From a virus, in the IMG/VR virus record IMGVR_UViG_3300017963_000016, positions 1 through 64,000 of that record: DNA of 64,000 nt. One strand, 5' to 3'. How positions within the stretch are numbered: position 1 is the first letter of the stretch; every line of letters begins with the position of its first letter. A program made the position numbers and the translations under genes. Below the pieces are notes generated by a model. It searched no databases, was not told where the DNA came from, and worked only from the letters and a program-made list of their open reading frames with translations. Shown one piece after another: positions 1-64,000 of this stretch.

Positions 1-237
1 CATAGGAAAAATCTTAATTTCATTCTCTATTTCTAAGTCTATAATTTTTATCAATATTCCTTTAAACTCTACATTCTTTAATGGTTTTCCCTTAAGCATA
101 GTCTTAGAGAAATATTGTAAAGCCTGGAGGAATCCACTTAATAATTCTACTTTATCAGGGTCAATTAATTCCTCTTCAAATGATATATCTAGAATTAATT
201 TTCCTCCCTCATCATATAATAAAATATTGTAAATCAT
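1..237 (-). CDS. Longin-like domain protein (runs off the window edge)
   Basis: Manual translation from ATG at 237: MIYNILLYDEGGKLILDISFEEELIDPDKVELLSGFLQALQYFSKTMLKGKPLKNVEF...; beta-G-beta start plus an LLSGFLxAlxxF helix typical of Asgard longin domains; not in the ORF track. Confidence 0.7.
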   Translation of the reverse strand, partial: MIYNILLYDEGGKLILDISFEEELIDPDKVELLSGFLQALQYFSKTMLKGKPLKNVEFKGILIKIIDLEIENEIKIFPM

Positions 238-310
238 TATTAGAGATTGAATTTGTTAGTTATCATTTATTTAGATTTTAAGAATAAAAATATTAGTATT
301 AGGAATAAGA

Positions 311-1015
311 TTAAATATAATAAATTTTAGAGGCTCTGAAGTATATTTTTCCTTTTCTTGTTAGAAATATTCTTTCATTTCTTATTCTGATAAATTTCTG
401 ATATTGTAAAACCCTTAATGAATCTTTTTTATACCAGATACTTGATTTAGCTTTACTCAATGATATAGGCTGATTTTCAGCAATATAGTTTAAAAAGGAG
501 GAATCATAAGCATATAATGGCCTGTTATCTACATGAAAGGATAATCCTTTTTCACTGATTTTATATTCATTAATTCTTCCTGATTTCCTGGAGAGTATAA
601 AATTTCTATTAAGAGGAGTTTTTACTGAATTTCTTACTGAGGATACACTAGAGCCTATTCCCTGTGCTATTTGATTTATTGAAAGCCATTTATCTTTATT
701 ATCCCTTAGAAATGAGATAACAGCCTTTTGGCCTTTCCCTAATTTAATATATGATTGTTTAGAAGTTAGGAAAATTTTTCTCCTGAGAGCAATTATCTGA
801 TCTTTTGTCTCATAATATTGTTTTTGAATTTGTTTATAATTGTTTTTCTTATCCCAATTAGCTCTCTCCTTTCTTTCAGGATGATCTTTTATTAGCATAC
901 TAGTATATTTGAATAGGTTTAGTCTCTGATTATATAAATCCCAATATTTTTTATCTAATATATAGAATTGCTTAACTAAGGATTCTAATTTTATTAATTC
1001 ATTACTTAATGGCAT
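311..1015 (-). CDS. Winged-helix DNA-binding protein
   Basis: LSINQIAQGIGSSVSSVRNSV...YKISEKG and IFLTRKG wHTH patterns after an N-terminal helical region. Confidence 0.65.
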   Translation of the reverse strand: MPLSNELIKLESLVKQFYILDKKYWDLYNQRLNLFKYTSMLIKDHPERKERANWDKKNNYKQIQKQYYETKDQIIALRRKIFLTSKQSYIKLGKGQKAVISFLRDNKDKWLSINQIAQGIGSSVSSVRNSVKTPLNRNFILSRKSGRINEYKISEKGLSFHVDNRPLYAYDSSFLNYIAENQPISLSKAKSSIWYKKDSLRVLQYQKFIRIRNERIFLTRKGKIYFRASKIYYI

Positions 1016-1113
1016 GAATAAAGATTAGATTATCAAAATATAAAAATTTTAGTTAGTCATTCAATACAGGCTGTGCCTTAATTAACTCAATTGTTTGAAT
1101 AAAACAATTCAAT

Positions 1114-2943
1114 TTATAACTCCTTATGAATTATTACACTTTTTTCAGGTTTTAAATAATTAATTTGTTTTTGGTAAGGCTTTTTATTTAGATGATCAAA
1201 AATATCAGCGAAAACAAAGATTTTATTATATTTATTATGGTTTTTTAGAGCAAAATCTATCTCAGGAGAAAATTTCTTCATAGGAATTGATAATGAATTT
1301 TTTGAAATCTCAAAACATTTACAAGAATAAACTTCTAATATTGTTTTATCAGAAGATATAGCATAAACATCAGGCTCTCCTTTAGCTCCATTCCTTATAA
1401 CTTCCCAATCCTTATACTCTGGATTCTCCCTAAGTTTATTGGCTTTATGAATCTCATACATCTCTCCTCTAACATCAGAGATATAGCCATCATATTTCTT
1501 TTTAATAGCTGAGAATTGAGGGTCGGATAATTCTATATTAAGTTTATCCCTTATCTGTTGGTAAGTGAGACCTCCTTTTTTCAATTTGAAGATTTCAATA
1601 TCTCTCTCAACATTTCTCCAATTTGTATTTTCTATATCAAAATCCTCCAATATTTTTTCATAGGGAATATCAAAAACATTTTGATCATCTATTTTATATT
1701 TTAATCGGTTATGCTCTTGAAGTTTTATTTGATCTGCTTTTTTTGTCTCATCTTTCTCCTTATTGAATTCATTGAATACCTCATCAATTAGGTAATTCAT
1801 ATAATCAACATCAGTATCCATGTTTAAGTCAAATATTAACCAATTCTTTAGAACTTTTTTACTCTTCCCATCATAATCTTTATTTTTAGCATAATCGAAA
1901 AGCTTTTTCTTATCTCTGCTTTTCTGGTCTTCGGTTAAGGAGCCTGATTGTATTCCTCCTGAGTCCTCTAAATGTTCTAATGCCTCTAGTTTAGCAACAT
2001 CGTAAACATCTAAAAGATGAACTATAGAGCCAATATCTAATAGAGCATAGCCTAAATATAGAGCTTTTAAGGTTTTTTTCTCAGGGTCGATATACCTTAC
2101 TAAAGCTCTAGTTTGCCATTGCTCCATTGGTTTATCTTTAGCAAATCCAAGAGGAGTTAATATAAAATGGAGATTAGGAACGTAAGCAAAATCAGGAGTC
2201 GCTAAAATATAATTCTTTTGCTTAACTCTAAAAGCTTTAATTATATTCTTAAATGCTTTAGCAAATGTTCTAGAGCCTGAGCCTGAAAGTTCATTATTCT
2301 CATCTTGAAGATTACATCCTCCTGGTAAAAGTTTAGTGAAATTATTTTTAGAGCCTGAGAAATCAGTTGAGTAAGTCATATCAATTTCTCCTTTTAACCT
2401 TACTTTCTTTAAATCTTTAAGAAATTGTTTATCTAGATTAATCTTCTTTAATAATTTCTCAATGATATGATTTGTATAATTAACCTTATGAGTTGTATTA
2501 TCATTCCTGGATTTTAGGCTTGTCAATATTCTTACTCTGGTATTTCTTATGCTATACCTTGTTTCTCTTATCTTTTGAGGAAGATATTTTATAAATAAAT
2601 CGTTAATAATTTTCCATAGCCATACTGCTATGAGGGATTTACCTAAACCACTTTTATTATTAACCTCACATACTACATTTCTCCCTGATCTTATACAATC
2701 TTCTATATGTTCTAATAAAACCTCAGTTATATCTCTTTTAAGAGCATAAGGCCTGGTAAAATGGTTATTCCATTTTCTCCTCATAGCATATTCTAACTGA
2801 TCAATAAAATAACGATCTAAAGCAGGATAATCATATTCTTCAAAATTTCCTTTAAATGATTTTTTTTTCGATCTCAGCCTGGAGAGTTGCCTATAGCTAT
2901 ATCTAATGCTCTTCCTATATCCCTGATTTTTATAAACTACCAT
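1114..2943 (-). CDS. P-loop ATPase with C-terminal HTH and PD-(D/E)xK-like nuclease domain (candidate packaging/morphogenesis ATPase)
   Basis: Walker A-like NKSGLGKS, Walker B-like NLQDE, RxKxxxxILATP; GLTYQQIRDKL HTH; GEPDVYA...EVYSCK nuclease-like motif. Confidence 0.65.
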   Translation of the reverse strand: MVVYKNQGYRKSIRYSYRQLSRLRSKKKSFKGNFEEYDYPALDRYFIDQLEYAMRRKWNNHFTRPYALKRDITEVLLEHIEDCIRSGRNVVCEVNNKSGLGKSLIAVWLWKIINDLFIKYLPQKIRETRYSIRNTRVRILTSLKSRNDNTTHKVNYTNHIIEKLLKKINLDKQFLKDLKKVRLKGEIDMTYSTDFSGSKNNFTKLLPGGCNLQDENNELSGSGSRTFAKAFKNIIKAFRVKQKNYILATPDFAYVPNLHFILTPLGFAKDKPMEQWQTRALVRYIDPEKKTLKALYLGYALLDIGSIVHLLDVYDVAKLEALEHLEDSGGIQSGSLTEDQKSRDKKKLFDYAKNKDYDGKSKKVLKNWLIFDLNMDTDVDYMNYLIDEVFNEFNKEKDETKKADQIKLQEHNRLKYKIDDQNVFDIPYEKILEDFDIENTNWRNVERDIEIFKLKKGGLTYQQIRDKLNIELSDPQFSAIKKKYDGYISDVRGEMYEIHKANKLRENPEYKDWEVIRNGAKGEPDVYAISSDKTILEVYSCKCFEISKNSLSIPMKKFSPEIDFALKNHNKYNKIFVFADIFDHLNKKPYQKQINYLKPEKSVIIHKEL

Positions 2944-2982
2944 ATTCTCAATAGAAAATATAGGTTAAAGATATTAATATAT

Positions 2983-3501
2983 TTATTCATTATCCATAAA
3001 ATTTTCTTTAATCTCTTCCTTAATTTCTCCTTTAATATCTCTATACATTCTTGAAATCATAGAACTTGTTAGTTTACCTGCTGTTCCTACCTCTAACATC
3101 ATATAACCAATAATTCTGAAATGATGATCTATTCTCTCTAATACAGCAGAAATCCATTTCCTTAAATAAATTTGTATTAATTTAGGTCTCCTAATATTAT
3201 CTGTAAGCTCATAAGTAAGCAATCTAGATATTCTATGATATTTTTTACCTATTTTTTCATTCAATTGAAGAGGAGAGTTAAAGATAATTATCATTATATC
3301 TGATAGATCAATTTGAAGAATTGTTAAAAAATCAACATCTTCAAAAGCAGATACATTTAAGCTCTCAATAGTTCTAAGGTAAATCCTAACTCCTAATAAA
3401 GCCTCTTGTTGTTTTTCCATATCTTTTGAGAGCATTTCATATAAATCTAAATAGAACTTCATCTTCATATCGTCCTCTCCATAAAACATATCCTCTCCCA
3501 T
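2983..3501 (-). CDS. Hypothetical helical protein
   Basis: 172-aa ORF with GGAGG RBS, between the membrane coiled-coil gene and the ATPase. Confidence 0.7.
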   Translation of the reverse strand: MGEDMFYGEDDMKMKFYLDLYEMLSKDMEKQQEALLGVRIYLRTIESLNVSAFEDVDFLTILQIDLSDIMIIIFNSPLQLNEKIGKKYHRISRLLTYELTDNIRRPKLIQIYLRKWISAVLERIDHHFRIIGYMMLEVGTAGKLTSSMISRMYRDIKGEIKEEIKENFMDNE

Positions 3502-3515
3502 GTTTTTCAGCCTCC

Positions 3516-4934
3516 TTAGTTAATTAGTAATCTACATATAGTAATTATTGAATTGATTAATGAGGAAGTCTCATTATTATTTGAATCTCCATTACTAGGC
3601 TCCTCAACTATAGGCCTATATAATCCAAATATTTCAGGATATATCCATACTAATAATAAAAGAACTAGTAAGAAGATAACAACAATTGCTAACATTATAG
3701 TTATCATTTGATATTCCTTTTTAACTCCTTTAAATGAGAATTTGGAAAGCTCTCTTTTCATTTCTGAGACTTCCTTTCCTCTTTTACTGATTTTCTTTAG
3801 CTCATCAGATAGCGTAGAATTATGCTTTTCTAAATCCATGTTATCATAAATTAGGGTTTCGTATTCATGTTTTATTTGTGATACCTCATCAGCAAAATAA
3901 GAGAGCTTGGCATTAAGCATTAATGCCTCTGCTATTTCTTTCTTCATTTGTATCAATCCTCCTTTCTTAACATAATAAGAGGAATAAGTGCAAATGAGAT
4001 AAGGCATTTTTTTGAAAACTCCTCCCTCTAGGAATGTAGCAACAGCATAATTAGGAACTTCTAATTGCATATTGGCAAAATAACCATAGTCATCAGTAAA
4101 AATAAAACAATTGAAAATGCTATCAGTTGGTAAAAGAAAAATTAATTCTTTATTATTAGAATAAATATCTGAATCCACTATTCTAGCTCTAAAGAATGTA
4201 AATTCAGGTAAATTATAACTTTCCTGGTCTAATTTAATCTCTGTTATTGGTTTACTAGGGTCGCGTCTATTAAGGTTTAGGCTAGCCCTTTGGCTGTTTT
4301 GTAATTCCCTTAACTCATCACTCTGTTTTTCAAAGTCTTTAACTTTATTTAATTTTATATTAAGATTCTTTATTTGCTCATCTATTTTATCAATAGCTTT
4401 CTTGATTTCTTTCTCTCTTTCCTCAGAGAATTTAGCAATTTCCTTTTCTTTCTTCTTGTCTTTTTTATCTTTTGATTGCTCCTCTGTTAAAAGATTATTC
4501 TTTATCATTTCAATTGGAGATATAAGGAGCCTGGAGAGATTCTTCTTTTTTTGTAAAAGATTAGATAATTCTTTTTTAATCTGTTTTTTCTCTGCTAATA
4601 TCTCATCCTTTATACCTAATTCTATTGGATATGTCTCTGTAGAGTCTATAACAATCCAACCAACGCTAGGCTTTCTAAAATCAACATCATAAACTATTGA
4701 AAAGAGATATAAATAAATTTTATACTTTTCTTGATAAATGATCTTTAAATATTTTAATCCTACCATATAAACAATATAACCAACAACAAAAAAAACCATA
4801 AGCATAAAGGATAATACCTGTAATATTATAAGCATAAACATAGTTGGAGCTATAAGCATAGCAGGATAAACCATTAGGCCTGAGTATACATCTTCACTAA
4901 GAATTTTTTTTACAAATTTATCTTTAAATCCCAT
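3516..4934 (-). CDS. Membrane protein with two N-terminal TMs, coiled coils and a C-terminal TM
   Basis: Hydrophobic segments at about aa 20-62 and ITIMLAIVVIFLLVLLLLVW; K/E-rich heptad regions. Confidence 0.75.
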   Translation of the reverse strand: MGFKDKFVKKILSEDVYSGLMVYPAMLIAPTMFMLIILQVLSFMLMVFFVVGYIVYMVGLKYLKIIYQEKYKIYLYLFSIVYDVDFRKPSVGWIVIDSTETYPIELGIKDEILAEKKQIKKELSNLLQKKKNLSRLLISPIEMIKNNLLTEEQSKDKKDKKKEKEIAKFSEEREKEIKKAIDKIDEQIKNLNIKLNKVKDFEKQSDELRELQNSQRASLNLNRRDPSKPITEIKLDQESYNLPEFTFFRARIVDSDIYSNNKELIFLLPTDSIFNCFIFTDDYGYFANMQLEVPNYAVATFLEGGVFKKMPYLICTYSSYYVKKGGLIQMKKEIAEALMLNAKLSYFADEVSQIKHEYETLIYDNMDLEKHNSTLSDELKKISKRGKEVSEMKRELSKFSFKGVKKEYQMITIMLAIVVIFLLVLLLLVWIYPEIFGLYRPIVEEPSNGDSNNNETSSLINSIITICRLLIN

Positions 4935-5034
4935 ATTCGATCATCTTTTACCTAACTTAGTTAATTGGAAAATCAATCAATTTCTATATAAAGTTTTATT
5001 ATAAAAAAGCTATTTTTGACTTTTTGGCTTTTTT

Positions 5035-5070
5035 AAAAACTCATAAAAACATCAAAAACTCATAAAAACA
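5035..5070 (+). repeat. Direct repeat AAAAACTCATAAAAACA x2 (19-bp period), candidate operator
   Basis: 5035-5051 and 5054-5070 are identical; lies in a divergent promoter region. Confidence 0.7.
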
Positions 5071-5134
5071 ACTATAATAACATATTTAAACAATTTACCT
5101 CAATTTTTTATTTAAGAAATTCCAATTTTAAATT

Positions 5135-5383
5135 ATGAGTTTAAATACTAATATATTACTTAAAGATGGGAGAAAAGTTAGTATTGTTAATATTAGGAAT
5201 GAAATACAAAAATCAATTGACTTATTATATAAAGCAATAGCGACAATTAATAATCTTAAAAAGAATACTTTTGAGGCTAAGCAGAATCAAGAATACCAGG
5301 AATCAATAAAGAATCAAGTCCAAAAGCAATATGATCGGTTAAAAGAATTGAAAATGAGAATAAACCGTTTTTATATGCTTTAA
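5135..5383 (+). CDS. Small helical/coiled-coil protein
   Basis: 82-aa ORF in an otherwise empty gap, TATA-like TTTAAA upstream. Confidence 0.65.
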   Translation: MSLNTNILLKDGRKVSIVNIRNEIQKSIDLLYKAIATINNLKKNTFEAKQNQEYQESIKNQVQKQYDRLKELKMRINRFYML

Positions 5384-5389
5384 TTTTTT

Positions 5390-5431
5390 TAATTTTACAC
5401 AAACTTTTGTGTAATTTTACACAAACTTTTG
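5390..5431. repeat. 22-bp-period repeat made of alternating inverted TTACACAAA half-sites
   Basis: TAATTTTACACAAACTTTTG at 5390-5409 and 5412-5431; reads TTACACAAA-ct-TTTGTGTAA-tt-TTACACAAA. Confidence 0.8.
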
Positions 5432-5445
5432 ATTTATATTTAAAA

Positions 5446-5543
5446 CACTAGTCGTAAAATTTTAAGAGGAGAAAATATTTTAAATGAATCTTATAAGAGC
5501 CTGAAGGCTCCAGGTATCCAAAATAGAAAAATGCTCCTGAAAA
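5446..5543 (+). repeat. Dispersed intergenic repeat, copy 1 (98 bp)
   Basis: CACTAGTCGTAAAATTTTAAGAGGAG...GCTCCTGAAAA; one mismatch to 27709-27806; first 45 bp identical to 21347-21391. Confidence 0.95.
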
Positions 5544-5633
5544 GTGGTAAGTTTAGGATATTATAAATTTATTATAATTATCCAATAATAAAAAGGCTGA
5601 AAGTATAAATATCCTCAAAATCATATTTAATTT

Positions 5634-5939
5634 ATGAGTAGTTCTAATAGTAATGAGGAAAATAATAGTAATGAGGAAAATAATAGTAATAATGAAGAGA
5701 ATAAGGAGGATTCTCAGCCTAATTTTGAAAAGGGAGATTACCTAGAATTAATCGATCAAATTTTTCTGAAAACTCAGGAATATAATGAATTTATTGAAAG
5801 TTCTATAACTAAGTTAAAGGAAGTTAAGAAATTGGATTTAACTAAGGTATTTAGTGAAATTCTTGATAATAAGATTGATTTCCTGGAAAATTTTGAAAAA
5901 AAGATTGAGAAAGTTTTAAGAAGAATCTATAATGTTTAA
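5634..5939 (+). CDS. Small acidic/coiled-coil protein with an N-terminal NSNEEN repeat
   Basis: 101-aa ORF; 18-bp tandem repeat at 5645-5690; BRE/TATA-like GAAAGTATAAAT about 25 nt upstream. Confidence 0.7.
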   Translation: MSSSNSNEENNSNEENNSNNEENKEDSQPNFEKGDYLELIDQIFLKTQEYNEFIESSITKLKEVKKLDLTKVFSEILDNKIDFLENFEKKIEKVLRRIYNV

Positions 5940-6788
5940 TTATCTAATTCTTGATCTCCTTTTTGTTTTTTTCTTTTTGGAGGATTTTTTAGGCTTTCTT
6001 TTCTTTCTGAAGTAATATATAAATACTAAGCTAAATAGGGAAATAGTGCTTATAATTAAGATTAATAACCAATTATCTATAAGCCATTGTAAGATTGGGT
6101 TTGAATTATAGCTTGAATATAAATCGGTAAAAAGAAATTTAATATCCTCAGTATTTGTTGTATCAGGGATATATGATATTGCTTTAAAACAACAATCCTC
6201 CTTATCCCTAAACCAATTGCTAGGAATTATTATTGAGAATCCATTATGATTTAAATCTATATTTCCAAAAACAGTTCGATTATCCATTGTTATAGCATAA
6301 ATAGTTTCAATCGCTCCTGTATATGTTTCTGAGGCTCCCAAGCCTGTGAATCCCTCTTTAGAGCAATTGCTCCAGAATAAAACTAAAAAAATATCAATAT
6401 CTCTTGTATCTCCCTCTGTATAGAAATCAATACTAGCATTATCCTTATCTAAATCTGTTATCTCAATTCTTCTAAAATCAAGAGCTTTATATTCATTATA
6501 TTCTGAATCTGTAAGTGTTTTTGAGTATTCAGTATTATCCCAATTCTCTTCCAGAATATTGTAATATTGATCTAATTCTTTAAGATCATCCTCCTCTGCT
6601 AAATCTGTTATGTTTTCTCCATATTCAGTAAGCTCTTTCAAATCTTTAATTTTGAATACTCTCTGATCTCTTAATGAATCTTCTGGAAAAACAATAGAAT
6701 CCTCAACAGCTAGGGCCATAGATAAGCTATAAAGAGAGATTATAGTTAAAATTCCTATGATTGAAATTAATTTAGTCTTATTCATCAC
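5940..6788 (-). CDS. Type I membrane protein (signal peptide, acidic ectodomain, C-terminal TM, basic tail)
   Basis: N-terminal signal ending in ALA; TM WLLILIISTISLFSLVFIYYF; tail RKKRKPKKSSKKKKTKRRSRIR. Confidence 0.8.
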   Translation of the reverse strand: MMNKTKLISIIGILTIISLYSLSMALAVEDSIVFPEDSLRDQRVFKIKDLKELTEYGENITDLAEEDDLKELDQYYNILEENWDNTEYSKTLTDSEYNEYKALDFRRIEITDLDKDNASIDFYTEGDTRDIDIFLVLFWSNCSKEGFTGLGASETYTGAIETIYAITMDNRTVFGNIDLNHNGFSIIIPSNWFRDKEDCCFKAISYIPDTTNTEDIKFLFTDLYSSYNSNPILQWLIDNWLLILIISTISLFSLVFIYYFRKKRKPKKSSKKKKTKRRSRIR

Positions 6789-6934
6789 AATTCAAATTAA
6801 TATTCTTAATAATATATTATCAATCCAAAATATAAATTATAACTATTTCAACTAATTTATTTTTTATTAATACTTTTTTATTCAGGATAAAAAAATGCTC
6901 TTGAATTGAAAAAATTAAAAATAAAAAAAATAAT

Positions 6935-7882
6935 TTATGAACTTATAACTCCAAGAGTTTGAGTATCTTTCCCATCAATGCTTATATCTATTGTGAAAAG
7001 CTCTATCTCATCATATTGATTGATATTGAAGAATAGCTCCTCAATAACAATATCTCTTTTTTGCCCAACTTCTATAAATGCTTTCTCCCTTAAGGAGACT
7101 ACATCTAGGGGATTAGTTTCCTCTATATCTCCTGTGAATAATCCAAGAGGAGCTTCTAATAGAAAGAATACAAAAGTTTCTACATACTCATCCTCAATCA
7201 AGCCTCCTGATACATCATAATCAATCTCCATATACATAACTAAGTAATCAATAACAAAATAATCATTCTTACTTAATTCTAGATCATCTTCTATTAAAGT
7301 TCCAGGAGGATAATAAGGCTCTGGAGGAGCCTCTTCAATATCAATATAAGGGAATACAAAATCCTCTGATAATAGATTAAGTATTCCTCCCTGATATATT
7401 GTCATAGCTCTAGGATATTTAGTAGCATAGAAATCAGAATCTTCCTCTCTCCAGCCTCTGCTCTTTAGCTCTTTTTTTACTTCATTTGCTGTATTTTTAC
7501 CATCAGCTAATTCTATAAGATCAGGAACTATATCAGGATTATCAAAATGGCCATAGGTAATTCCTAATGTAGAGGAAATATTCTCACTAGCATATTCTTC
7601 ATAATCGAAAGTTCTTTTGCCTAAGCCTCCCTCAGTTGTATCATTTAAAATAATTTTACAGTCTCTTGAGAGAGTTATGGTTAATTCAGCCTCATTTACT
7701 TCAGTTGGTAGAATTGAAAGGAAAATTGGCTGTAATAACATCCCTATTGGAATACCTGCTATTATTCCAAGACTAATAGATATTAAGATAATATTTCTCC
7801 TGGAATTAGGATTTTTTTTTCCTCCTGAGGCTCCTGATTTTGTTTTTCTTCTAGGTTTAGGATTATTTTTCATGGTTATCAT
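6935..7882 (-). CDS. Type II membrane protein, paralog A
   Basis: Basic N-tail (PRRKTK...NSRRN), one TM, acidic ectodomain; paralog of 7966..8919. Confidence 0.8.
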   Translation of the reverse strand: MITMKNNPKPRRKTKSGASGGKKNPNSRRNIILISISLGIIAGIPIGMLLQPIFLSILPTEVNEAELTITLSRDCKIILNDTTEGGLGKRTFDYEEYASENISSTLGITYGHFDNPDIVPDLIELADGKNTANEVKKELKSRGWREEDSDFYATKYPRAMTIYQGGILNLLSEDFVFPYIDIEEAPPEPYYPPGTLIEDDLELSKNDYFVIDYLVMYMEIDYDVSGGLIEDEYVETFVFFLLEAPLGLFTGDIEETNPLDVVSLREKAFIEVGQKRDIVIEELFFNINQYDEIELFTIDISIDGKDTQTLGVISS

Positions 7883-7965
7883 TTATTTAAATTTAATTTA
7901 AAATAGGCTGAATATGTATTTATTTTTTCAGTTTAAAAAAAGTTAAAAAAAAAGATTAATTAGGT

Positions 7966-8919
7966 TTAGGTAGAGCCTCCTAACACATAAAGAGTCTCAG
8001 GTCTATTATCTATTACTAAATCCATAGAAAAGGCATTAAGCTCATCAAATTCATTGATATTGAAGAAAAACTCTTCAATGATTATATCTCTTGTATCGCC
8101 CTCTTCTATAAAAGCTGATTCTCTTAGAGTAAGAACATCTAAAGGATGATCTTCTAATTCCCCTGATATTAAAGCTCTAGGAACATTTAATAATAAATTT
8201 GCTGATACATAAATATAGTCATCCTCAATTAAGCCTCCTGATACATCATAATCCATTTCTAATATACAAACTATTTGATCAATCGTAAATGGCTTATCTT
8301 TACTCAATTCCAGATCATCTCTAATTAAAGTTCCTGAAGGCCAATAAGCTTCAGGAGGAGATTCAGATACATCAATAAATGGGAAAAAAAAGTCTTCACT
8401 CATCAAATTTAAAGTCGCAAATCCCTGTAATCCAATGCTCATGGCTCTAGGATAAATTGAGCTAAAAAAATCAGCATCCTCTTCCTCATAGCCTCTATCC
8501 TCTAACTCTTCTCTTAGTTCATTTAAAGAAATATCAGGCTGAGATAAATCAATTAAATCCAAATGAATTTCAGGATTCTCAAAATAGCCATATCTTACAG
8601 CCATAGTAGAGCCTGAAATATTCTCATTAGCATAGGTAATATAGTCAAAAGTTCTTTTGCCTAAGCCTCCCTCAGTTGTATCATTTAAAATAATTTTACA
8701 ATCTCTAGCTATAGATATATTCAGCTCAGCCTCAAGAGTCTCCTCAGTTGGTAAAATTGAAAGGAAAATTGGCTGTAATAACATCCCTATTGGAATACCT
8801 GCTATTATTCCAACAGAAAGTGTTATAAGTAAAGCATTTCTCCTGGAATTAGGATTTTTTTTTCCTCCTAAGGCTCCTGGTTTTGTTTTTCTTCTAGTTT
8901 TATCACTCATATTTATCAT
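7966..8919 (-). CDS. Type II membrane protein, paralog B
   Basis: Shares GIIAGIPIGMLLQPIFLSILPTE, DCKIILNDTTEGGLGKRTFDY and DYDVSGGLIED with 6935..7882; start may be 8910. Confidence 0.8.
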   Translation of the reverse strand: MINMSDKTRRKTKPGALGGKKNPNSRRNALLITLSVGIIAGIPIGMLLQPIFLSILPTEETLEAELNISIARDCKIILNDTTEGGLGKRTFDYITYANENISGSTMAVRYGYFENPEIHLDLIDLSQPDISLNELREELEDRGYEEEDADFFSSIYPRAMSIGLQGFATLNLMSEDFFFPFIDVSESPPEAYWPSGTLIRDDLELSKDKPFTIDQIVCILEMDYDVSGGLIEDDYIYVSANLLLNVPRALISGELEDHPLDVLTLRESAFIEEGDTRDIIIEEFFFNINEFDELNAFSMDLVIDNRPETLYVLGGST

Positions 8920-9058
8920 TTTAAAGATAAATTATATTAATTAAAAATAGCTTGAATTTCTATTTATTTTTTCAGCTATGTGAAAGATTTTTCTCAGGAG
9001 GATTTTTACCTAGATAATTATTTGAATAAAAAATTATAATAGTGTGAAAATAGATCGA

Positions 9059-9161
9059 TTCTACCTATATTTTAAGGTTTTTAAAAAGATCGTGATTCTA
9101 TGGCCATTCAATTTTCAATACTACTATATAGATAATTTCAAAATAAGTTCTACCTATATTT
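9059..9161. promoter_or_regulatory. 14-bp direct repeat TTCTACCTATATTT upstream of the paralog pair
   Basis: Identical at 9059-9072 and 9148-9161 in a non-coding gap. Confidence 0.4.
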
Positions 9162-9205
9162 ATTTCCAAAATTAGAAAAAATAATTTTTAGGTCCAGGAT
9201 AAAAA

Positions 9206-9484
9206 TTATTCTTTTTTAATCCCATTGCTTAAAACACATAATAAGATTATTGGATAAATGAGCCATAAGAAATTCTCAAAAAAATAGGATATATCAAATG
9301 GAAATCCAAATATAATAATAGGAGAGCCTAATATATAATTAAAATAAGAATATAATATTGTAAATCCAAAAGTAAAGATAAGAGCTATTATTATAGTAAT
9401 CTTTCCTCTCTTATTTAATCTATATTTTGTTTTCCTTTTTTTCTTTTCTTTTTTTCTCCTGGAGCCATTATCCTTTTCAGGCAT
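9206..9484 (-). CDS. Small 2-TM protein with a basic GSRRK N-tail
   Basis: MPEKDNGSRRKKEKKKRK followed by two hydrophobic segments. Confidence 0.75.
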   Translation of the reverse strand: MPEKDNGSRRKKEKKKRKTKYRLNKRGKITIIIALIFTFGFTILYSYFNYILGSPIIIFGFPFDISYFFENFLWLIYPIILLCVLSNGIKKE

Positions 9485-9701
9485 TTTTTTTCTTTCTCCT
9501 TTCTTCTTTTCTTTTAGCTAATAAGGAACGTAAATATTTCTCATGTTCTTTCTCTTGGAGTGCCATAATTCTGAAATGGCCAAATTTATTCATATCTAAA
9601 TTATAAATTGCCATATAAGTCTTATGAGCCTCATTCTCATCTTTAATATAAAATTCAATTTCCTTATCAGTTAATTTTTTTCCCTCTTTTCTTTTAGCCA
9701 T
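9477..9701 (-). CDS. Mini ferritin/rubrerythrin-like protein
   Basis: IKDENEAHKTY and MALQEKEHEKYL resemble the paired E...ExxH helices of the ferritin-like fold. Confidence 0.5.
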   Translation of the reverse strand: MAKRKEGKKLTDKEIEFYIKDENEAHKTYMAIYNLDMNKFGHFRIMALQEKEHEKYLRSLLAKRKEERRKKKNA

Positions 9702-9722
9702 TTTTTATCTCCTTTTTAATTT

Positions 9723-10046
9723 TTATCTTCTAGTTCTAGGCTCAGCCTTTACTCCTGATCTATATTTTCCTTTTTGTATTCTCCTAATTTTCCAATAGTA
9801 AGCTACTCTAAACATAATATAGAATAGCATAAGTAGTAATACGTAGAGGATAAACCCATCTAACTCTACTATTTGACTTCCTACATTCATTTTTATATCC
9901 CAATCAATATAATCAATGAAAAGAGGAACTAAGAAAAAACTAACAACTCCAGAAAGAACAACAAAACAGCATTTAGCTTGGAATTTCTTATACTCATTAA
10001 CTACTTTTGCTCTTCTTCTTATATCTCTATCTGAATAGCCTACCAT
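9723..10046 (-). CDS. Small 2-TM protein
   Basis: Two hydrophobic helices, basic N- and C-tails. Confidence 0.75.
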   Translation of the reverse strand: MVGYSDRDIRRRAKVVNEYKKFQAKCCFVVLSGVVSFFLVPLFIDYIDWDIKMNVGSQIVELDGFILYVLLLMLFYIMFRVAYYWKIRRIQKGKYRSGVKAEPRTRR

Positions 10047-10058
10047 TATTTATTCTCC

Positions 10059-10235
10059 TTAAGGTAATAGATCATAAGCATTTACTAAAGGATGTTTATA
10101 TAGCCTTTCTCTTAATTTATCAGGCATTTTCTCTAACTCTATTTCTAATTTAGATTGATTTCTTAATAATTTCCAAAGTTGATCTAATGCTTTTTTATAT
10201 TTCATATAACTACTATCTCTCTGAGATTCAGGCAT
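10059..10235 (-). CDS. Small hypothetical protein (58 aa)
   Basis: Manual translation MPESQRDSSYMKYKKALDQLWKLL...AYDLLP*; AAGGAG RBS; fills an operon gap. Confidence 0.6.
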   Translation of the reverse strand: MPESQRDSSYMKYKKALDQLWKLLRNQSKLEIELEKMPDKLRERLYKHPLVNAYDLLP

Positions 10236-10284
10236 GATTATTATATTCTCCTTTAAGATTATAAATTTAGCTTTTTTCTATTAA

Positions 10285-10815
10285 TTAGAATACTATAGTT
10301 CCTGAGCCAGAAAAGTTTTCGTTTTTAGATATATATATCTTAATATATTTTAGAATTTGCTCAGGAGTCATGCTTTTTACTTTAGGTTTGTAAATTTCAA
10401 TAGGCTTTTTTGAAATAATGGTATTGGTTAATTGAGAGCTTAATCTTACAATATAGAACTCATCTTTCTGCTTATGTTTGGCTATTGTATAATACCAATT
10501 CCCTTTTCTTACCTGTCTAAAGGTCTCAATATTTCCTTTCATATTAGAATCCAGGTAATTGATCATGTGAGTTTTTTGAGGATTGTATTGGATTTTAATT
10601 TTTTCTTTTTTTCCAGGATTAATGAAAAAATCTTCCTCTATTCCTGTAAATTTTCTCTTGGCAACTCTACCATTCTTTAGAACTTTAGAGTAAGTTAATT
10701 GATTGTAAAAACCTCTATTTATAACTTTAATTATTACATATTTATCAATAAAGTTATCCTGATAAATTATTAAGCCTTTCTCAGCCTCTCCTTTCTTTAA
10801 TCTCCTGAAAGTCAT
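10285..10815 (-). CDS. Basic hypothetical protein
   Basis: 176-aa ORF in operon. Confidence 0.65.
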   Translation of the reverse strand: MTFRRLKKGEAEKGLIIYQDNFIDKYVIIKVINRGFYNQLTYSKVLKNGRVAKRKFTGIEEDFFINPGKKEKIKIQYNPQKTHMINYLDSNMKGNIETFRQVRKGNWYYTIAKHKQKDEFYIVRLSSQLTNTIISKKPIEIYKPKVKSMTPEQILKYIKIYISKNENFSGSGTIVF

Positions 10816-10816
10816 A

Positions 10817-11065
10817 CTATTTCCTCATAAACCAACTTTTACTTTTATATAATCTAGTTTTTAATTTATTAAACTTCTTTTGGGATTTGATTAAATAGTT
10901 CCTTATAGTATCTAAATCTTTTTTATCAGATTCCTGTAAAAAACCTTTAAATTTTTTCAGGTCCTGTATTACTGATTCAAGATCAGTATTTAGCTTTCCT
11001 GCTAAATCATAATAGGTAAAAACATTTTTGCTATTTTCCTTATTTAAAATATCTAGTCTAGCCAT
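10817..11065 (-). CDS. Small helical-hairpin protein
   Basis: 82-aa ORF with two amphipathic helices. Confidence 0.65.
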   Translation of the reverse strand: MARLDILNKENSKNVFTYYDLAGKLNTDLESVIQDLKKFKGFLQESDKKDLDTIRNYLIKSQKKFNKLKTRLYKSKSWFMRK

Positions 11066-11083
11066 TTTACTTATTTATTTTCT

Positions 11084-11383: not shown

Positions 11384-11384
11384 A

Positions 11385-12201: not shown

Positions 12202-12216
12202 TTTCTAAACCTCATT

Positions 12217-12462: not shown

Positions 12463-12467
12463 AAGTA

Positions 12468-52640: not shown

Positions 52641-52645
52641 ATTTC

Positions 52646-53089: not shown

Positions 53090-53564
53090 TGGTCAATTTC
53101 CTCCCTTTACATTCCTTAATATGATCATCTAAACATTCATAACAAAATTTTTCCAGGCATTTTTCACAATTATTCATACAGGCATTGCAAAAGTCTTCAT
53201 AACAGTTTTGGCATGTTGCCATACCTAAACACTCATTACATATAGATTTCTTACAATGAGAGCATTTATTCTTATTTCCAGGATTAATATAGTTAGAGCA
53301 ATAATTATTACTACAATAACCTAATAATTCTTGATATTGAATACACACTTCAGGAAGATTGAGTAAGTCTATATATTCCCTAAGAATATTCTTTAAGGAA
53401 TTAATTAAATTGGTATTTCTCTTCCTAAATATCTTATCCAAAAACTCACTCCTTAATTTACAGGAATTTTCCTGGTATTTCTTACAATTACCACATGAAA
53501 AGGGATTAAGATTGTTCTTAAAATCTTGACCTCCATTATTAACAAAAAATTTTAGATTAGGCAT
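53082..53564 (-). CDS. Cys-rich multi-CxxC protein
   Basis: Repeated CxxC...CxxC units. Confidence 0.65.
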   Translation of the reverse strand: MPNLKFFVNNGGQDFKNNLNPFSCGNCKKYQENSCKLRSEFLDKIFRKRNTNLINSLKNILREYIDLLNLPEVCIQYQELLGYCSNNYCSNYINPGNKNKCSHCKKSICNECLGMATCQNCYEDFCNACMNNCEKCLEKFCYECLDDHIKECKGRKLTNA

Positions 53565-57748: not shown

Positions 57749-58216
57749 CTAAACCTCAAAAAAGTTATTCTCTATTATTTTTCTTGTTTGTTTAATCTTT
57801 TCTTCTAATCTTTCTGGATTTTCTATTAGATAATCTTCTTTCTTTAGATTCCCAATAAAATTGTTTAGATCACTTTCTTTAATATGCTCCGCTATGTTTT
57901 TAGAACTCCAGAGTAATGATCTAAGAGTATAGCTTAAAGCTTTTGTAATAGTATTTACTTCCTCTTCATATCTTATATTATTATAGAAATGAAAATTACA
58001 GAATGGGCAAAACATCCAGGCCATTGATTCCTCATTATTTTCTATTCCCTTATCATAGTAAACCCAATTTCCAAACAAACCCTGAACTTTAAGAAAGATA
58101 TGGTTATAGCTTGTATAATTGGAATAGAATTTAATTTTCTTTTCTTTATATAATATCTCTAAATTACTACAGCAAAAGAAAATCCAATTTCCTTTCTCAT
58201 CCTTATCTATTTTCAA
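57749..58216 (-). CDS. CC...CxxC domain protein
   Basis: FCCSNL...FCPFC. Confidence 0.6.
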   Translation of the reverse strand: MKIDKDEKGNWIFFCCSNLEILYKEKKIKFYSNYTSYNHIFLKVQGLFGNWVYYDKGIENNEESMAWMFCPFCNFHFYNNIRYEEEVNTITKALSYTLRSLLWSSKNIAEHIKESDLNNFIGNLKKEDYLIENPERLEEKIKQTRKIIENNFFEV

Positions 58217-58890
58217 AACAACTCATCCTCATACTCTTCTATTAATTTAGTATTACAATATATACAATTTACCAAAGGAAATAGGCCATAAAATTCCTCA
58301 GGGTCGTAAACCTCTCCTGTTATTATATTTCCAACTTTCTTAGGAATAACAGCATGGTTATAAGATAACTCATAAACATCATTACAGTTATAATATTGAG
58401 GAGCATTACTCAGAGTGAAAAAACCTAATAATGTTGCTTTCTCTAAATCCTTACAGCAGAATTTATATTTATTTAAATGAATTAATTGCTCCTGAGAAAA
58501 ATATTTAATATTAAAGTTGGCTCCAGGCTCATTATTATAATTGATATTTTTTAAATCAAATTCAAATTTAGTTGGTTTAAAGCAAAAACAACACTTATCA
58601 ATTACCAAAGAATAATAATCAGAATCCTTTTGATAAGGCTCTAAATTAAATTGCTCTAAACTAATTTCTGGAAATGGCTCTAAATTCTTTTCAAGAATGG
58701 ATTTTGGAATAAAATGATTTATAACAATCTTACTATTCCTTATAGTTAAGAGGCCTCTTATAACTGAATCATATAGCTCATAACAGCAAAACTTAATATT
58801 TTCCTGAATAAAATAAGCTATAGCTTTCAAAATATCCTGCTGATCAAACTTACAATCCATTAACCAATTTATTTTTCCTGTATTATTCAT
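58213..58890 (-). CDS. Protein with two CC...CxxC domains
   Basis: KFCCYEL...CCFC; KFCCKDL...CIYC. Confidence 0.6.
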   Translation of the reverse strand: MNNTGKINWLMDCKFDQQDILKAIAYFIQENIKFCCYELYDSVIRGLLTIRNSKIVINHFIPKSILEKNLEPFPEISLEQFNLEPYQKDSDYYSLVIDKCCFCFKPTKFEFDLKNINYNNEPGANFNIKYFSQEQLIHLNKYKFCCKDLEKATLLGFFTLSNAPQYYNCNDVYELSYNHAVIPKKVGNIITGEVYDPEEFYGLFPLVNCIYCNTKLIEEYEDELF

Positions 58891-59888: not shown

Positions 59889-60848
59889 TTATTCCTCCTG
59901 AATAAACTCCATTAAATTAAATTTATTATTATTTACTCCATTAATTTCTAAAGCTAACTGATAAGAGAAATATGGAGGAACTGAATTTCCGATCATCTTA
60001 TACTGATTTGTAAGGCTCCCGGATATTTTATATGAATCAGGGAATGTTTGGATTCTCATTAATTCTCTAGGTGTAAATCTCCTGAGATTTACTTTTCTTT
60101 CTTCCTCACTTTCCAGGCTTAAATTGATATTTTGATTTCTCCTGATCAATTTAAAGTCATCTTTTGTTGTTATAGTTCTACATGGCTCATCAAGAATTTG
60201 CTCTCCATGTTTAGTATAGAAAGAATCTTTTACTTCAGAGTCTCTTGGGATAAGTCTCTTATTTAATTTATCTGAGTATTCTTGAGGAGGCATATCCCTT
60301 AAGGCTTTTCTAACAATATTCCATTTATGAATCTTATTTCCAAATAGATCAATTCCTCCTAGTTTTGAATGAGTTGGTTTTAATCTTTTGAAAGCTCCTG
60401 AGAAAGCTCTAACTCTGAATTGAGGAATAGCATAATTAACAAGATCATACTCAGCTATTATTGGGATTGTTATATTGAATGTTCCTCTTTTTAGTAATGG
60501 AATTATTTGGGATACATTTTCCATTATCCAATATTTAGGCTTAATTACCTCAATCCATTTAAGAAATACTTTAACTAACTCCATTCCCTTATCTTTAAGG
60601 CTCCTGAAATTTGCTATTGATAACTCCTTACATGGAGGAGAGCCTATAATGAAATCAATCTTATCTCCTAAGAAATCATAGGGATTAAGCTCTCTAATAT
60701 CAGCCAATATAAACTCAGAATCAATATTATCAGTATAAGACTTTTTTACAAATTTCCAATTGTCAATAGCATATAATATTTTAAATCCTGCTTTTATGAA
60801 TCCCAATGAAAAGCCTCCCATTCCTGAAAATAAATCTATTCCATTCAT
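59889..60848 (-). CDS. C5-cytosine DNA methyltransferase
   Basis: DLFSGMGG, GSPPC, ENV, QFRVR, RELMRIQTFP, IGNSVP. Confidence 0.95.
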   Translation of the reverse strand: MNGIDLFSGMGGFSLGFIKAGFKILYAIDNWKFVKKSYTDNIDSEFILADIRELNPYDFLGDKIDFIIGSPPCKELSIANFRSLKDKGMELVKVFLKWIEVIKPKYWIMENVSQIIPLLKRGTFNITIPIIAEYDLVNYAIPQFRVRAFSGAFKRLKPTHSKLGGIDLFGNKIHKWNIVRKALRDMPPQEYSDKLNKRLIPRDSEVKDSFYTKHGEQILDEPCRTITTKDDFKLIRRNQNINLSLESEEERKVNLRRFTPRELMRIQTFPDSYKISGSLTNQYKMIGNSVPPYFSYQLALEINGVNNNKFNLMEFIQEE

Positions 60849-62383: not shown

Positions 62384-63337
62384 TTAACAATTAGCCTCCT
62401 GTCTTTGTTCTAAATATTCTTTTACACATTTTCTATTTCTTGAATCTCTTAATTCTAAAAACTCCTCCCATGTTTTACTCCAAAATACACTCTTAAGATT
62501 AACCCATCTATGTAGTGCTTTCTGATAATGATCATCTTTATTATAAGGCATAACATAAGGGTCAATTCTGTATTTCTTAAGAAAGTTTATTCTACTCATA
62601 TCCTCTGATTCAGTTGTATTAAAACCAATTAGAACATAAAACATCATATTACCAAATTTGAATCCTGCTTTCTCTAGTATATGGAGCTTTTCCTCAATAG
62701 TAGATTCTAATCTTGGGTCGTCAAAAGCAAATCTAATTTGTTTACCAGGCCACATTTTAATTTTATAAAGTAATTTAGCATTATCATTATTTATTAATCT
62801 TATATCTAATCCCTGAGTAAAGTCAATCCTCTTTTTAGACTCTTTTAGTTTTTGTAATTCCTTAATATGATCTTCATAAGCTAAAATATTATTATCTAAT
62901 AGTAATACCTTATCTTGATCTTTTGTAAACTCACTTAGATCGGCATTCTTCTTGATAAAATTTTCTTTTTGAGGAACTATACAAAACTTACATTTTCTTA
63001 TACAGCCTCTTGTAATAAAACCCATACTATAATCTAGATTGTTATATAGTGAGTAATCTGGATATAGATGTTCAATAGATTCAGGTAAATCTTTTCTAAT
63101 AACATTTCCATTAGAATCTCTAAAGCCTGAGCCTCCTTTAATCATATCAGCTCTTAAATAATTATCATTAAGGTTTGGATATGTGAAAATTTTAGAGGCG
63201 TATATCTTATCATAAAAATTATGGAATAAAGGAGAATACCAGGATACAATATCTCCTTTCTGCTTATGATAAGAGCTTAATTTCATAAGAGCTAAGTTTG
63301 GTATTTTAGAATCTACATTGAATAGAGCAACTTTCAT
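62384..63337 (-). CDS. Radical SAM protein (virus-associated family)
   Basis: PNLALMKLS, SKIF, GGSG, TRGCIRKCKFC (CxxxCxxC), LLDNNILA, QGLDIRL. Confidence 0.9.
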   Translation of the reverse strand: MKVALFNVDSKIPNLALMKLSSYHKQKGDIVSWYSPLFHNFYDKIYASKIFTYPNLNDNYLRADMIKGGSGFRDSNGNVIRKDLPESIEHLYPDYSLYNNLDYSMGFITRGCIRKCKFCIVPQKENFIKKNADLSEFTKDQDKVLLLDNNILAYEDHIKELQKLKESKKRIDFTQGLDIRLINNDNAKLLYKIKMWPGKQIRFAFDDPRLESTIEEKLHILEKAGFKFGNMMFYVLIGFNTTESEDMSRINFLKKYRIDPYVMPYNKDDHYQKALHRWVNLKSVFWSKTWEEFLELRDSRNRKCVKEYLEQRQEANC

Positions 63338-63664
63338 TTATGAATTGGCCTCCTGGATTATTGTAAGTAATGATTTCCCTAATTCAGTTATTTTTAATTT
63401 AATATTACCATTCTCATTTATTTTATTTTTAAAATTCTTCATAAGGAAATTAACTTCTTTTATTTTTTGATTTATTGAAATGAATCTTTTATCCTGGAGT
63501 TTACTTAATACATGGAATAAAGCAACAGGAGACCTTAAAGTTATATCATTCTTAAAGTCTAACCATAATCTCACTATAGATTGTTCTCCTCCTTTATTTA
63601 ATCTTTTTAAAACCTTAGTCATGTTTTTACCAATAGTTAAGCAAATTCTAGAATCTTCACACAT
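63338..63664 (-). CDS. wHTH protein
   Basis: LSKLQDKRFI...KITELGK. Confidence 0.55.
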   Translation of the reverse strand: MCEDSRICLTIGKNMTKVLKRLNKGGEQSIVRLWLDFKNDITLRSPVALFHVLSKLQDKRFISINQKIKEVNFLMKNFKNKINENGNIKLKITELGKSLLTIIQEANS

Positions 63665-63666
63665 TA

Positions 63667-63912
63667 CTATTCCTCATCAGAGATAAGTATTAATTTTTTT
63701 AAATCTAATTCCAGGTATTCTTTTTTAGTAATTTTTTTTACTGAATATTCTATTCCTGGACCATAATTTTTTTTTAGATATTCTTCAAATTTTCTAAGTT
63801 GTTTTTCTGAATAAAAAATAAAACCCTCTACCTCTCTATCTGAGTATTTCAATATAGGGATTGAGAGAGCTTGGCATTCATTAGGTTTTAATAGATATAT
63901 TTGTATACTCAT
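63667..63912 (-). CDS. Hypothetical protein
   Basis: 81-aa coupled ORF. Confidence 0.55.
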   Translation of the reverse strand: MSIQIYLLKPNECQALSIPILKYSDREVEGFIFYSEKQLRKFEEYLKKNYGPGIEYSVKKITKKEYLELDLKKLILISDEE

Positions 63913-64000
63913 TAATCCTCATCTTCCTCATCAGTTGTAATTCTAGGAGCAAATATAAAGTTATATTTATCATTCAGAATAATTAAGGGAGCCTTAGGAG
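63912..64000 (-). CDS. 3' end of a probable PCNA/sliding-clamp-like protein (truncated)
   Basis: Manual translation ...PKAPLIILNDKYNFIFAPRITTDEEDED*; PL...APR plus an acidic tail is the PCNA C-terminal pattern. Confidence 0.5.
   Translation of the reverse strand, partial: PKAPLIILNDKYNFIFAPRITTDEEDED

Follow-up and report, generated by a model that had tools for sequence, protein, structure and literature searches.

We analysed a stretch of 64,000 nucleotides (the window), bases 1-64000 of a single 93,471-bp contig held as IMG/VR record IMGVR_UViG_3300017963_000016, which its source collection classes as a virus. The contig represents a large mobile element of Asgard archaea, in which a module of membrane-protein genes is closed by g002, a gene for a P-loop ATPase joined to an Hjc-type resolvase. 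The 123 bp at both contig ends are identical, an exact terminal overlap that closes the contig to a circle of 93,348 bp. Several observations bear on this closure. First, a 151-aa minus-strand open reading frame (ORF) runs uninterrupted across the junction (window 1-219 plus contig 93130-93348) and is whole only when the molecule is circular. Secondly, a 73-kb relative (Joint Genome Institute (JGI) contig Ga0180433_10000412; 73,241 bp) carries homologues of the contig-start gene g001 and of the contig-end genes g185 and g182 on one unbroken stretch beside its g002 homologue. Thirdly, a Logan unitig of 14,392 nt, from a separate assembly, extends 9.3 kb beyond window position 1. The element is a complete circular 93.3-kb extrachromosomal DNA that replicates in Asgard archaea, in keeping with the initial annotation, which had taken it for an Asgard mobile element larger than 64 kb. 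The same annotation had pointed to chromosomal flanks, or head-tail genes elsewhere on the contig, as what would speak for another origin; because the element is circular there are no flanks, and the remaining 29 kb contain no head-tail genes.

The element has a guanine-cytosine (GC) content of 27% overall and 25-32% along its whole length, and GC skew stays below zero everywhere, tracking the coding strand. By a simple ORF call it has 186 ORFs of at least 50 aa (median 111 aa; coding density 90%), 180 of them on the minus strand. The window accounts for 119 of these, 114 minus and five plus, which agrees with the earlier count of more than 100 mostly minus-strand ORFs. Seven ORFs reach 400 aa or more: two membrane proteins, a methyltransferase, a PAPS-reductase-like protein, a helix-turn-helix (HTH)/coiled-coil protein, an Asgard-domain protein and g002. 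In the 29 kb outside the window the longest ORF has 283 aa, and therefore head-tail genes are not concealed there.

Family scans were run against Pfam, PHROGs and NCBIfam for the 150 longest ORFs of the whole contig, together with targeted scans. In these libraries no capsid (HK97 or jelly-roll), portal, terminase, tail, sheath or baseplate family was found, nor any integrase, polymerase, primase, helicase, Orc1/MCM, PCNA or Rep family; the absence of recognisable HK97 capsid, portal, terminase and jelly-roll genes had been noted before. Pfam and NCBIfam contained no match for ParA/ParB, toxin-antitoxin, relaxase, VirB4/VirD4 or other secretion ATPase families, and among their matches there was no TFB, Topo mini-A or primase-helicase, only a weak TFIIE-alpha/winged-HTH (wHTH) signal. 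With hidden Markov models (HMMs), neither an HK97-fold major capsid protein nor a double jelly-roll (DJR) family was matched; three-dimensional models cover g002 and g030, and ORFs of 225-325 aa are numerous and unannotated. No tRNA genes were found, nor any Rfam family in a scan of the window, so that the earlier statement that core genes are lacking stands. Megablast of 25 kb against phage and plasmid collections returned no near-identical DNA. A chromosomal fragment is ruled out by the closed circle and the absence of cellular genes, and a bacterial phage is ruled out because every domain homologue is archaeal.

These scans also bear on whether the element might be a head-tailed virus (Caudoviricetes) with hallmarks diverged past HMM recognition. 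A 96.6-kb circular Asgard myovirus, NMV1, has been published, and HK97 folds are sometimes visible by structure alone. However, the seven ORFs of at least 400 aa are all otherwise explained, no portal, tail, sheath or baseplate family appeared among the 150 longest ORFs, and the sole ATPase bears an Hjc nuclease and not an RNase-H-type one. We consider a head-tailed virus hardly credible here.

The membrane-protein genes are concentrated in one part of the element (Table 1). Predicted transmembrane (TM) helices occur in 19 of the 30 ORFs within 2,983-20,728 versus 16 of the 156 elsewhere (Fisher p 1.8e-9); the clustered membrane proteins plus ATPase reported at first sight were thus recovered, and the module is conserved in relatives. 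The single-pass surface proteins are g007, the tandem paralogues g008/g009, g027, g030, g031 and g032, with a signal peptide or signal anchor predicted for g007, g008/g009, g027, g030 and g031. There are seven small TM proteins of 73-107 aa (g010, g012, g020-g023 and g025), five with two predicted helices and two with one long predicted stretch. When these seven were scanned against PHROG at E <= 1, the best match (0.0025) was to an unknown-function family and no capsid protein was named. The polytopic proteins are g026 and g028, and interspersed between the membrane proteins are small basic soluble proteins (g011 and g013-g019) and the wHTH protein g024. Close to the ATPase gene, g004 is predicted to have a TM helix at each end with a long charged coiled-coil between them; g003 and g004 are 71% and 65% identical to their counterparts in the 73-kb relative, where their order is kept.

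Table 1. Positions of the main features in the window.
Feature	Position	Strand	Description
g001 (234 aa)	311-1015	-	No family; 60% identity in 73-kb relative
g002, 609 aa	1114-2943	-	RecA-type P-loop ATPase + HTH + Hjc-type resolvase; last gene of module
g003 (172 aa) + g004 (472 aa)	2983-4934	-	Directly upstream of ATPase gene g002
98-nt repeat, copy 1	5446-5543		Intergenic, at module border; unitig depth doubles there
Module g007-g031	5940-20034	-	Surface, small TM and polytopic proteins, with protease
g029	16520-17251	-	CPBP/Rce1-type intramembrane protease (Pfam Rce1-like match)
g030, 562 aa	17329-19017	-	Candidate spike; largest surface protein of the element
g032, 195 aa	20141-20728	+	Type II membrane protein with basic tail; among the five plus-strand ORFs of the window
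98-nt repeat, copy 2 (82%)	21347-21444		Ends 68 nt upstream of g033, with which the membrane block begins
g040	24535-25857	-	PAPS-reductase-like (PHROG 424, 4e-8)
g042	26566-27351	-	PAPS-reductase-like (Pfam, 8e-18)
98-nt repeat, copy 3 (99%)	27709-27806		Ends 72 nt upstream of g043
g044, 473 aa	27976-29397	-	Weak winged-HTH matches at residues 83-143, then coiled-coil tail
g046, 739 aa	29992-32211	-	Asgard-specific EFWGHCSNLQAW domain at residues ~134-314
g063	39096-40298	-	DNA adenine methyltransferase, D12 class
g066	41026-41736	-	DNA adenine methyltransferase, Dam
g112	59889-60848	-	C5 cytosine DNA methyltransferase (2.6e-46)
g117	62384-63337	-	Radical-SAM enzyme; probably the source of a phrog_9298 match (3.5e-82)

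Very basic tails were found on nearly all membrane proteins of the module, for example the N-terminal MAKKQTKGSRRK, or a K/R run after a C-terminal anchor. The large ectodomains are acidic, and they contain 1.64 N-x-S/T sequons per 100 aa versus 0.60 in the non-TM proteins (2.8-fold; 3.3-fold when counted per Asn). Archaeal N-glycosylation happens outside the cytoplasm, and because of this, together with the positive-inside rule, the large domains are expected to point outward and the basic tails inward.

The 98-nt repeat, with three copies in the window, is a candidate for a shared promoter or regulatory element. Unitigs are interrupted at the g008/g009 paralogues and at this repeat. The public DNA runs that contain the element (window 1-12000 queried) are X1 and X2, both sediment-type metagenomes; since their unitig lengths and breakpoints are identical, they are probably one data set filed twice, and this may be the source data set itself. 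No RNA run was listed among the public sequencing runs containing the element.

The element encodes one P-loop protein, the product of g002, which has no TM helix. Its AlphaFold2 (AF2) model (predicted local distance difference test (pLDDT) 87) comprises a RecA-type core (~67-310), an HTH region (~426-492) and a C-terminal domain (~493-608), which superposes on the archaeal Hjc Holliday-junction resolvase 1ob8 (Z 11.4, root-mean-square deviation (rmsd) 2.3 Å, 102 residues). Against RecA, the Zot N-domain, VirB4, TcpA, PilT and B204 the ATPase core scored Z 6.5-8.3, effectively a tie. RecA gave Z 8.3, the Zot N-domain 2r2a Z 7.7 (rmsd 4.2, 146 aa), VirB4 Z 7.7 and TcpA Z 7.2; STIV2 B204, at Z 6.5, fell below RecA and Zot/VirB4, and all of these values lie in the noise band. 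Atlas neighbours of g002 are labelled Zot/AAA (score of those with Zot labels, 0.77), and its position at the end of the block and its lack of a TM helix would fit a morphogenesis ATPase like pI, Zot or B251. A word-indexed search with g002 yielded one homologue, 64% identical, on the 73-kb contig. An exhaustive profile search yielded 141 cluster representatives of the family, mostly of 500-650 aa, with the conserved motifs GxGKS, QDE and C-terminal E..PD..SxK..E. Apart from generic AAA and HTH noise, Pfam and PHROG have no model that matches the family, and in PDB sequence searches with g002 the P-loop alone was matched. Nothing was found by tblastn of g002 and of the ATPase of an Asgard chromosomal island (G003, below) against the phage collection, or by a genome-contig search with alignment A4.

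The topology of the module and the scores of the ATPase core are both relevant to a further alternative, namely an icosahedral virus with an internal membrane (Varidnaviria- or sphaerolipovirus-like) whose jelly-roll is too divergent for HMMs, whose internal-membrane proteome would be the module and whose packaging ATPase would be g002. Such viruses have many small membrane proteins beside a packaging ATPase, the Asgard skuld- and fylgjaviruses belong to this kind, the g002 ATPase does align with STIV2 B204 (Z 6.5), and there are many unannotated ORFs of 225-325 aa. But signal anchors, sequon-rich acidic ectodomains and basic cytoplasmic tails make up an outward topology, unlike that of a shell assembled in the cytoplasm; the match to B204 is weaker than those to RecA, Zot and VirB4, the HMM scans gave no match to a DJR family, and the genome is 5-6 times the size of the known archaeal members. 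An internal-membrane virus thus seems quite improbable to us.

The candidate spike, g030, consists of a signal peptide, a beta-rich ectodomain, a TM helix and a basic coiled-coil tail. Its AF2 model (pLDDT 74) has very long beta-hairpins in the ectodomain, followed by the TM helix and the coiled-coil tail; an ESM Atlas model was poor (pLDDT 0.32). The best structural match, Z 6.0 (VIA), was to beta-sandwich domains of glycosidases and is at noise level. The protein has 20 homologues at 29-42% identity, several of them on contigs of 63-82 kb, which suggests that these contigs are further large relatives of the element.

The layout of the module recurs elsewhere. In the compared part of the 73-kb relative (27% GC), which is syntenic with the element, 31 of the 44 ORFs have homologues at ~26-80% identity, among them the small membrane proteins, g001-g004 and numerous small ORFs of the 81-93 kb region; within the module, homologues were found for g007, g009, g010, g012, g015, g018, g021, g023 and g025. 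In a more distant relative (L005, 33% GC) the homologues of g007, g002 and g027 are clustered. A member of the g002 family was present in 26 of 400 Asgard species genomes (E <= 1e-8), and in six independent contexts a gene of this family terminates a membrane-protein block: the element, the 73-kb relative, L005, G147:C265, the G003 island and G021:C1. On the 36-kb contig G147:C265, 1-TM proteins come first, then a surface protein of 1,249 aa and a CPBP protease, followed by a pair of polytopic proteins, a 2-TM protein of 70 aa, additional small proteins and finally a full-length ATPase-HTH-Hjc protein, an order collinear with g031-g030-g029-g028/g026-g025...g002. Its protease (Pfam 1.2e-14) is 28% identical to g029, and one protein of the block matches the C-terminal part of the g030 family.

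Two of these contexts include an integrase gene. On a 998-kb Asgard contig, an island of ~28 kb (G003:C1:444000-472200; GC 24-26%) encodes a tyrosine integrase, a 71-aa 2-TM protein, a 976-aa anchored surface protein, DUF3800, small genes, a 4-TM protein, a g002-family ATPase and a ParB protein, and is probably an intact integrated element of the type of HeimV1, a putative Asgard provirus. The contig G021:C1 (3,326,783 bp) ends in tRNA-Gly(CCC), and its first 30.3 kb are an element that encodes multi-TM proteins, a surface protein of 1,822 aa, the ATPase and a methylase, as well as a ParB fusion of 809 aa and an integrase; from these matching features we infer that it is HeimV1 itself, of Ca. 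Heimdallarchaeum endolithica PR6. Its ATPase G021_013 (653 aa, G021:C1:15746-17707) has the ATPase domain alone (independent E-value 2e-64 versus the family profile; phmmer of g002 against it, 3e-6). The C-terminal half of G021_013 is of low complexity, with SL repeats and acidic stretches in place of HTH-Hjc. In an Asgard genome of 50% GC, a 406-aa protein (G009:C1 ~2591683-2592891) corresponds to the C-terminal HTH-Hjc half alone, and therefore the ATPase and HTH-Hjc halves also occur apart. Sequence similarity of the module to the G147, G021 or G003 modules was found for the ATPase and, weakly, for the protease, and for nothing else. The kinship to HeimV1-type elements is therefore distant, since it is based on one gene plus a common layout.

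The host can be approached through g046. Its EFWGHCSNLQAW domain occurs in more than 1,000 proteins and is typically fused, in cells, to Ras-type GTPases, leucine-rich repeats (LRR) or tetratricopeptide repeats (TPR); a full-length relative of g046 (34% identity) is encoded on the 73-kb contig. Among 185,579 bacterial and archaeal species genomes the domain was found at no fewer than 544 loci. The best 80 comprise 55 in Promethearchaeota (the Loki lineage in NCBI taxonomy), 9 in other Asgard phyla, 16 in 'uncultured archaeon' and none in bacteria. Named family members come from Ca. Harpocratesius (Lokiarchaeia) and from a metagenome-assembled genome of Heimdallarchaeota. Because, among these best 80, the domain of g046 was seen in no named genome other than those of Asgard archaea, the link to an Asgard host is strong, and the Asgard association is well supported. 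The initial annotation had called the domain characteristic of Lokiarchaeota; it is an Asgard domain with a Loki majority, but it is not Loki-specific. A host of the Loki lineage is most likely, but the assignment is made to Asgard archaea and not to a class.

Our preferred reading of the genome, held at about even odds, is that the element is a virus whose particle is built on a membrane and not on a protein shell. Several features point to a virus: ORFs that are short and lie on one strand, the coding density of 90%, the methyltransferases and PAPS reductases, and the lack of partition, conjugation, integrase and replication families in the library scans. Also in favour of this reading are the cluster of membrane proteins, their basic tails, the ~3-fold enrichment of sequons, the fold of g002 and its place as the single P-loop protein, and the pattern repeated in six contexts. 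The element is filed as a virus by its source collection, and the reading agrees with how HeimV1 behaves and with the published module of wyrdviruses. If this is so, one co-oriented transcription unit, from ~21.3 to 0.3 kb, would be switched on via the shared 98-nt upstream element and would yield ~20 membrane proteins, with the acidic, N-glycosylated domains exposed on the outside and the very basic tails projecting toward the cytoplasm or the particle interior, where they could bind and condense the DNA. The CPBP protease g029 may process some of the membrane proteins. The g002 protein could be a functional analogue of terminase, or of the pI/Zot/B251 morphogenesis ATPases. Its task would be to resolve replication products that are branched or concatemeric and to move the genome into a budding or extruding membrane particle. 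The remaining ~70 kb would supply small early-type genes for host takeover and anti-restriction, namely four methyltransferases, PAPS reductases, radical-SAM, Zn-finger and wHTH proteins, and a protein with an Asgard signalling-type domain, and replication would be carried out by host enzymes.

A number of results weigh against a membrane-built virus. No protein matches a known virion protein by HMM, and for the small 2-TM proteins a PHROG scan revealed no likeness to spindle-virus capsid proteins of the His1/SSV1 type. No known fold was recognised in the g030 ectodomain, and this includes the folds of class I-III fusogens and fusexins (Foldseek gave none at E <= 0.001, and all matches had E > 0.007). 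A g030 homologue of 35% identity stands isolated at G215:C76:76393-77853, on an 85-kb contig of ordinary chromosomal make-up with mixed strands and large chromosomal-type genes around it; as this homologue lies alone in a chromosome, the family is not exclusive to mobile elements, and it may be exchanged between elements and host. The enveloped, pleomorphic or spindle-type particle put forward in the initial annotation is a hypothesis, no protein having a virion match, the fold of g030 being unrecognised and a homologue of it chromosomal. The fold of the g002 ATPase is equally near RecA, Zot, VirB4 and TcpA (Z 7-8), and the weak profile matches of g002-family members are DnaA/DnaC-type proteins; a replication or conjugation role is therefore possible for g002. 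Scans of IMG/VR with g002, g030 and the alignments A4, A6 and A7, together with the phage collection, gave no relatives. When 400 Asgard genomes were queried by blastn with window 1-20000, the matches were short and AT-rich and none of the 14 best lay in a repeat array, so that a link to Asgard CRISPR spacers was not found; as 20 kb were queried and two candidates scored per genome, this is a weak negative. Finally, two proteins were modelled, and a divergent jelly-roll or HK97 protein could sit among the ~170 unannotated ORFs.

Some of the same results would suit a large non-viral plasmid, or an element transferred by vesicles or by contact, whose module remodels the host surface or builds a DNA-transfer apparatus and whose g002 is a DNA-processing or transfer ATPase or a replication initiator-resolvase. 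Thus the scans gave no homologue of a capsid protein, VirB4 (Z 7.7) and the coupling protein TcpA (Z 7.2) are as close to the ATPase domain as Zot is, members of its family have weak DnaA/DnaC-like matches, the g030 family is present in a chromosome too, and the published large circular capsid-less Asgard mobile genetic elements (MGEs) are regarded as possible plasmids. Yet 93 kb in which the scans found no ParA/ParB, toxin-antitoxin, relaxase, VirD4/VirB4-size ATPase, Orc1/MCM or Rep family is not what a plasmid would lead one to expect, and near-total strand polarity, tiny ORFs and the methyltransferase load are more typical of viruses. Moreover, the related HeimV1 over-replicates once excised, and basic tails on almost all membrane proteins are unexpected in a secretion apparatus. 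Such a plasmid or transferred element is therefore an unlikely explanation, though one to be taken seriously.

On the reading of a membrane-built virus, a wider proposal can be made, which we hold tentatively and with some doubt. The element and its 63-93-kb relatives may be the large-genome branch of an undescribed, Asgard-wide lineage of capsid-less viruses that includes HeimV1, in which the basic tails of ~20 envelope proteins would directly condense the genome and an ATPase-Hjc loader with terminase-like function would have evolved independently of the tailed viruses.

Outside the module, the element encodes four DNA methyltransferases (g063, g066, g112 and, beyond the window, g137), and further family matches are DUF3850, DUF488, DUF6011, DUF5591 and several wHTH or Sso10a-like proteins. 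The middle domain of g044 recurs as the stand-alone g077 (45212-45697; 58% identity over 141 aa), and the DNA repeats D2, D5 and D8 mirror this duplication. In g091 (weak DUF5131) and g092 (window 51885-53089) two repeated segments share ~70% amino-acid identity, with a 71-nt DNA repeat, 96% identical, which suggests a recent partial duplication. Three tandem paralogues, g120-g122 (window 63912 to contig 65651), have 182-205 aa, are 37-46% identical and contain 7-9 Cys each. Other small proteins rich in Cys (10-19 residues) are encoded at window 53082-53564, 58213-58890 and 50488-51135 and at contig 80911-81480, and these likely bind Zn. CCxC domains had been named earlier as a Lokiarchaeota trait; in the element, many small ORFs rich in Cys were noted. 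At 795 bp, contig 67687-68481 is the widest stretch of the element with no coding sequence. In the 151-aa junction ORF, the N-terminus MIYNILLYDEGGKLILDISF resembles longin/roadblock by eye; a longin domain had been named earlier as a further Lokiarchaeota trait, and the scanned part of this ORF (105 aa) has no Pfam match.

Large circular capsid-less Asgard MGEs and HeimV1 have been published, and in this respect the element is of a kind already known. The suggestion of a new lineage accordingly has to be qualified by the distant tie to HeimV1-type elements, through the ATPase and the layout of the module, and by the similar published MGEs. We found no published description of a 93-kb integrase-less form with an expanded basic-tailed membrane proteome, of the ATPase-Hjc fusion, or of the g002 family as a marker of such modules across Asgard genomes. 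We see in the element a good candidate for a large membrane-wrapped virus of a new kind. Asgard viruses are relevant to hypotheses on how eukaryotes arose, and few types are known; a particle made from membrane proteins alone, if confirmed, would represent a new morphogenetic principle. The ATPase-Hjc family (141 clusters; 26/400 Asgard species genomes) offers a marker for elements that capsid-based virus detection misses and joins HeimV1, the 'enigmatic MGEs' and the integrated islands into one testable group, and the ATPase-resolvase fusion is a tractable biochemical target.

HeimV1, described as a putative provirus in Ca. Heimdallarchaeum endolithica PR6 (Wu et al. 2022), excises, circularises and is targeted by CRISPR (PMC8813620); it over-replicates, with a V-shaped coverage profile (PMC8813620). 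Like HeimV1 and similar integrated elements (the G003 island and G147:C265), the element has a homologous ATPase domain closing a block of single-pass and polytopic membrane proteins, is highly polycistronic, encodes DNA methylases, has an Asgard host and lacks a recognised capsid; with G147:C265 it also has in common the gene order, the CPBP protease and a C-terminal domain like that of g030. In contrast, it is three times larger than HeimV1 (93 versus 30 kb), has no Phage_integrase match in Pfam and is a closed circle, unlike the G021 and G003 elements, and contains no ParB family or fusion. Its largest surface protein has 562 aa, whereas those of G003, G147 and G021 have 976-1822 aa, and the HeimV1 ATPase lacks the Hjc nuclease of g002. 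As it has no integrase, ParB fusion or giant (>900 aa) surface protein, the element is probably purely episomal.

In the wyrdvirus module (Medvedeva et al., bioRxiv 10.1101/2021.07.29.453957), small 2-TM proteins are combined with an adhesin and with a pI-like ATPase that has no TM helix. Wyrdviruses and other spindle-shaped viruses (Halspiviridae, Fuselloviridae) resemble the element in how the putative morphogenetic module is put together: proteins of ~80 aa with two hydrophobic helices, large anchored surface proteins and, closing the block, a TM-less ATPase likened to the pI/Zot extrusion ATPases. They differ from it in that its genome is 4-6 times larger and its ATPase carries HTH and Hjc domains, and the likeness to wyrdviruses is one of description. 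The 'enigmatic MGEs' of Asgard archaea include the circular 10H_0 (84.5 kb) and Ga0114923_10000127 (58.8 kb) (bioRxiv 10.1101/2021.07.29.453957). Like them, the element is large, circular, Asgard-associated, from marine sediment and without identifiable capsid genes, and it encodes methyltransferases, PAPS reductase and Zn-finger proteins. Compared by description, enigmatic MGEs of the 10H_0/7H_42 type encode PCNA, TFB, Orc1/Cdc6, Topo mini-A or a primase-helicase, whereas the element has none of these in Pfam or NCBIfam. By functional analogy, g002 may be likened to the large terminase of tailed viruses, in which a DNA-motor-type ATPase and a nuclease are likewise combined in one polypeptide beside structural genes. 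It differs from terminase in having no portal partner and no terminase family signal, in the HTH between its domains, and in a nuclease of the PD-(D/E)xK Hjc fold where terminase has an RNase-H/RuvC-like one.

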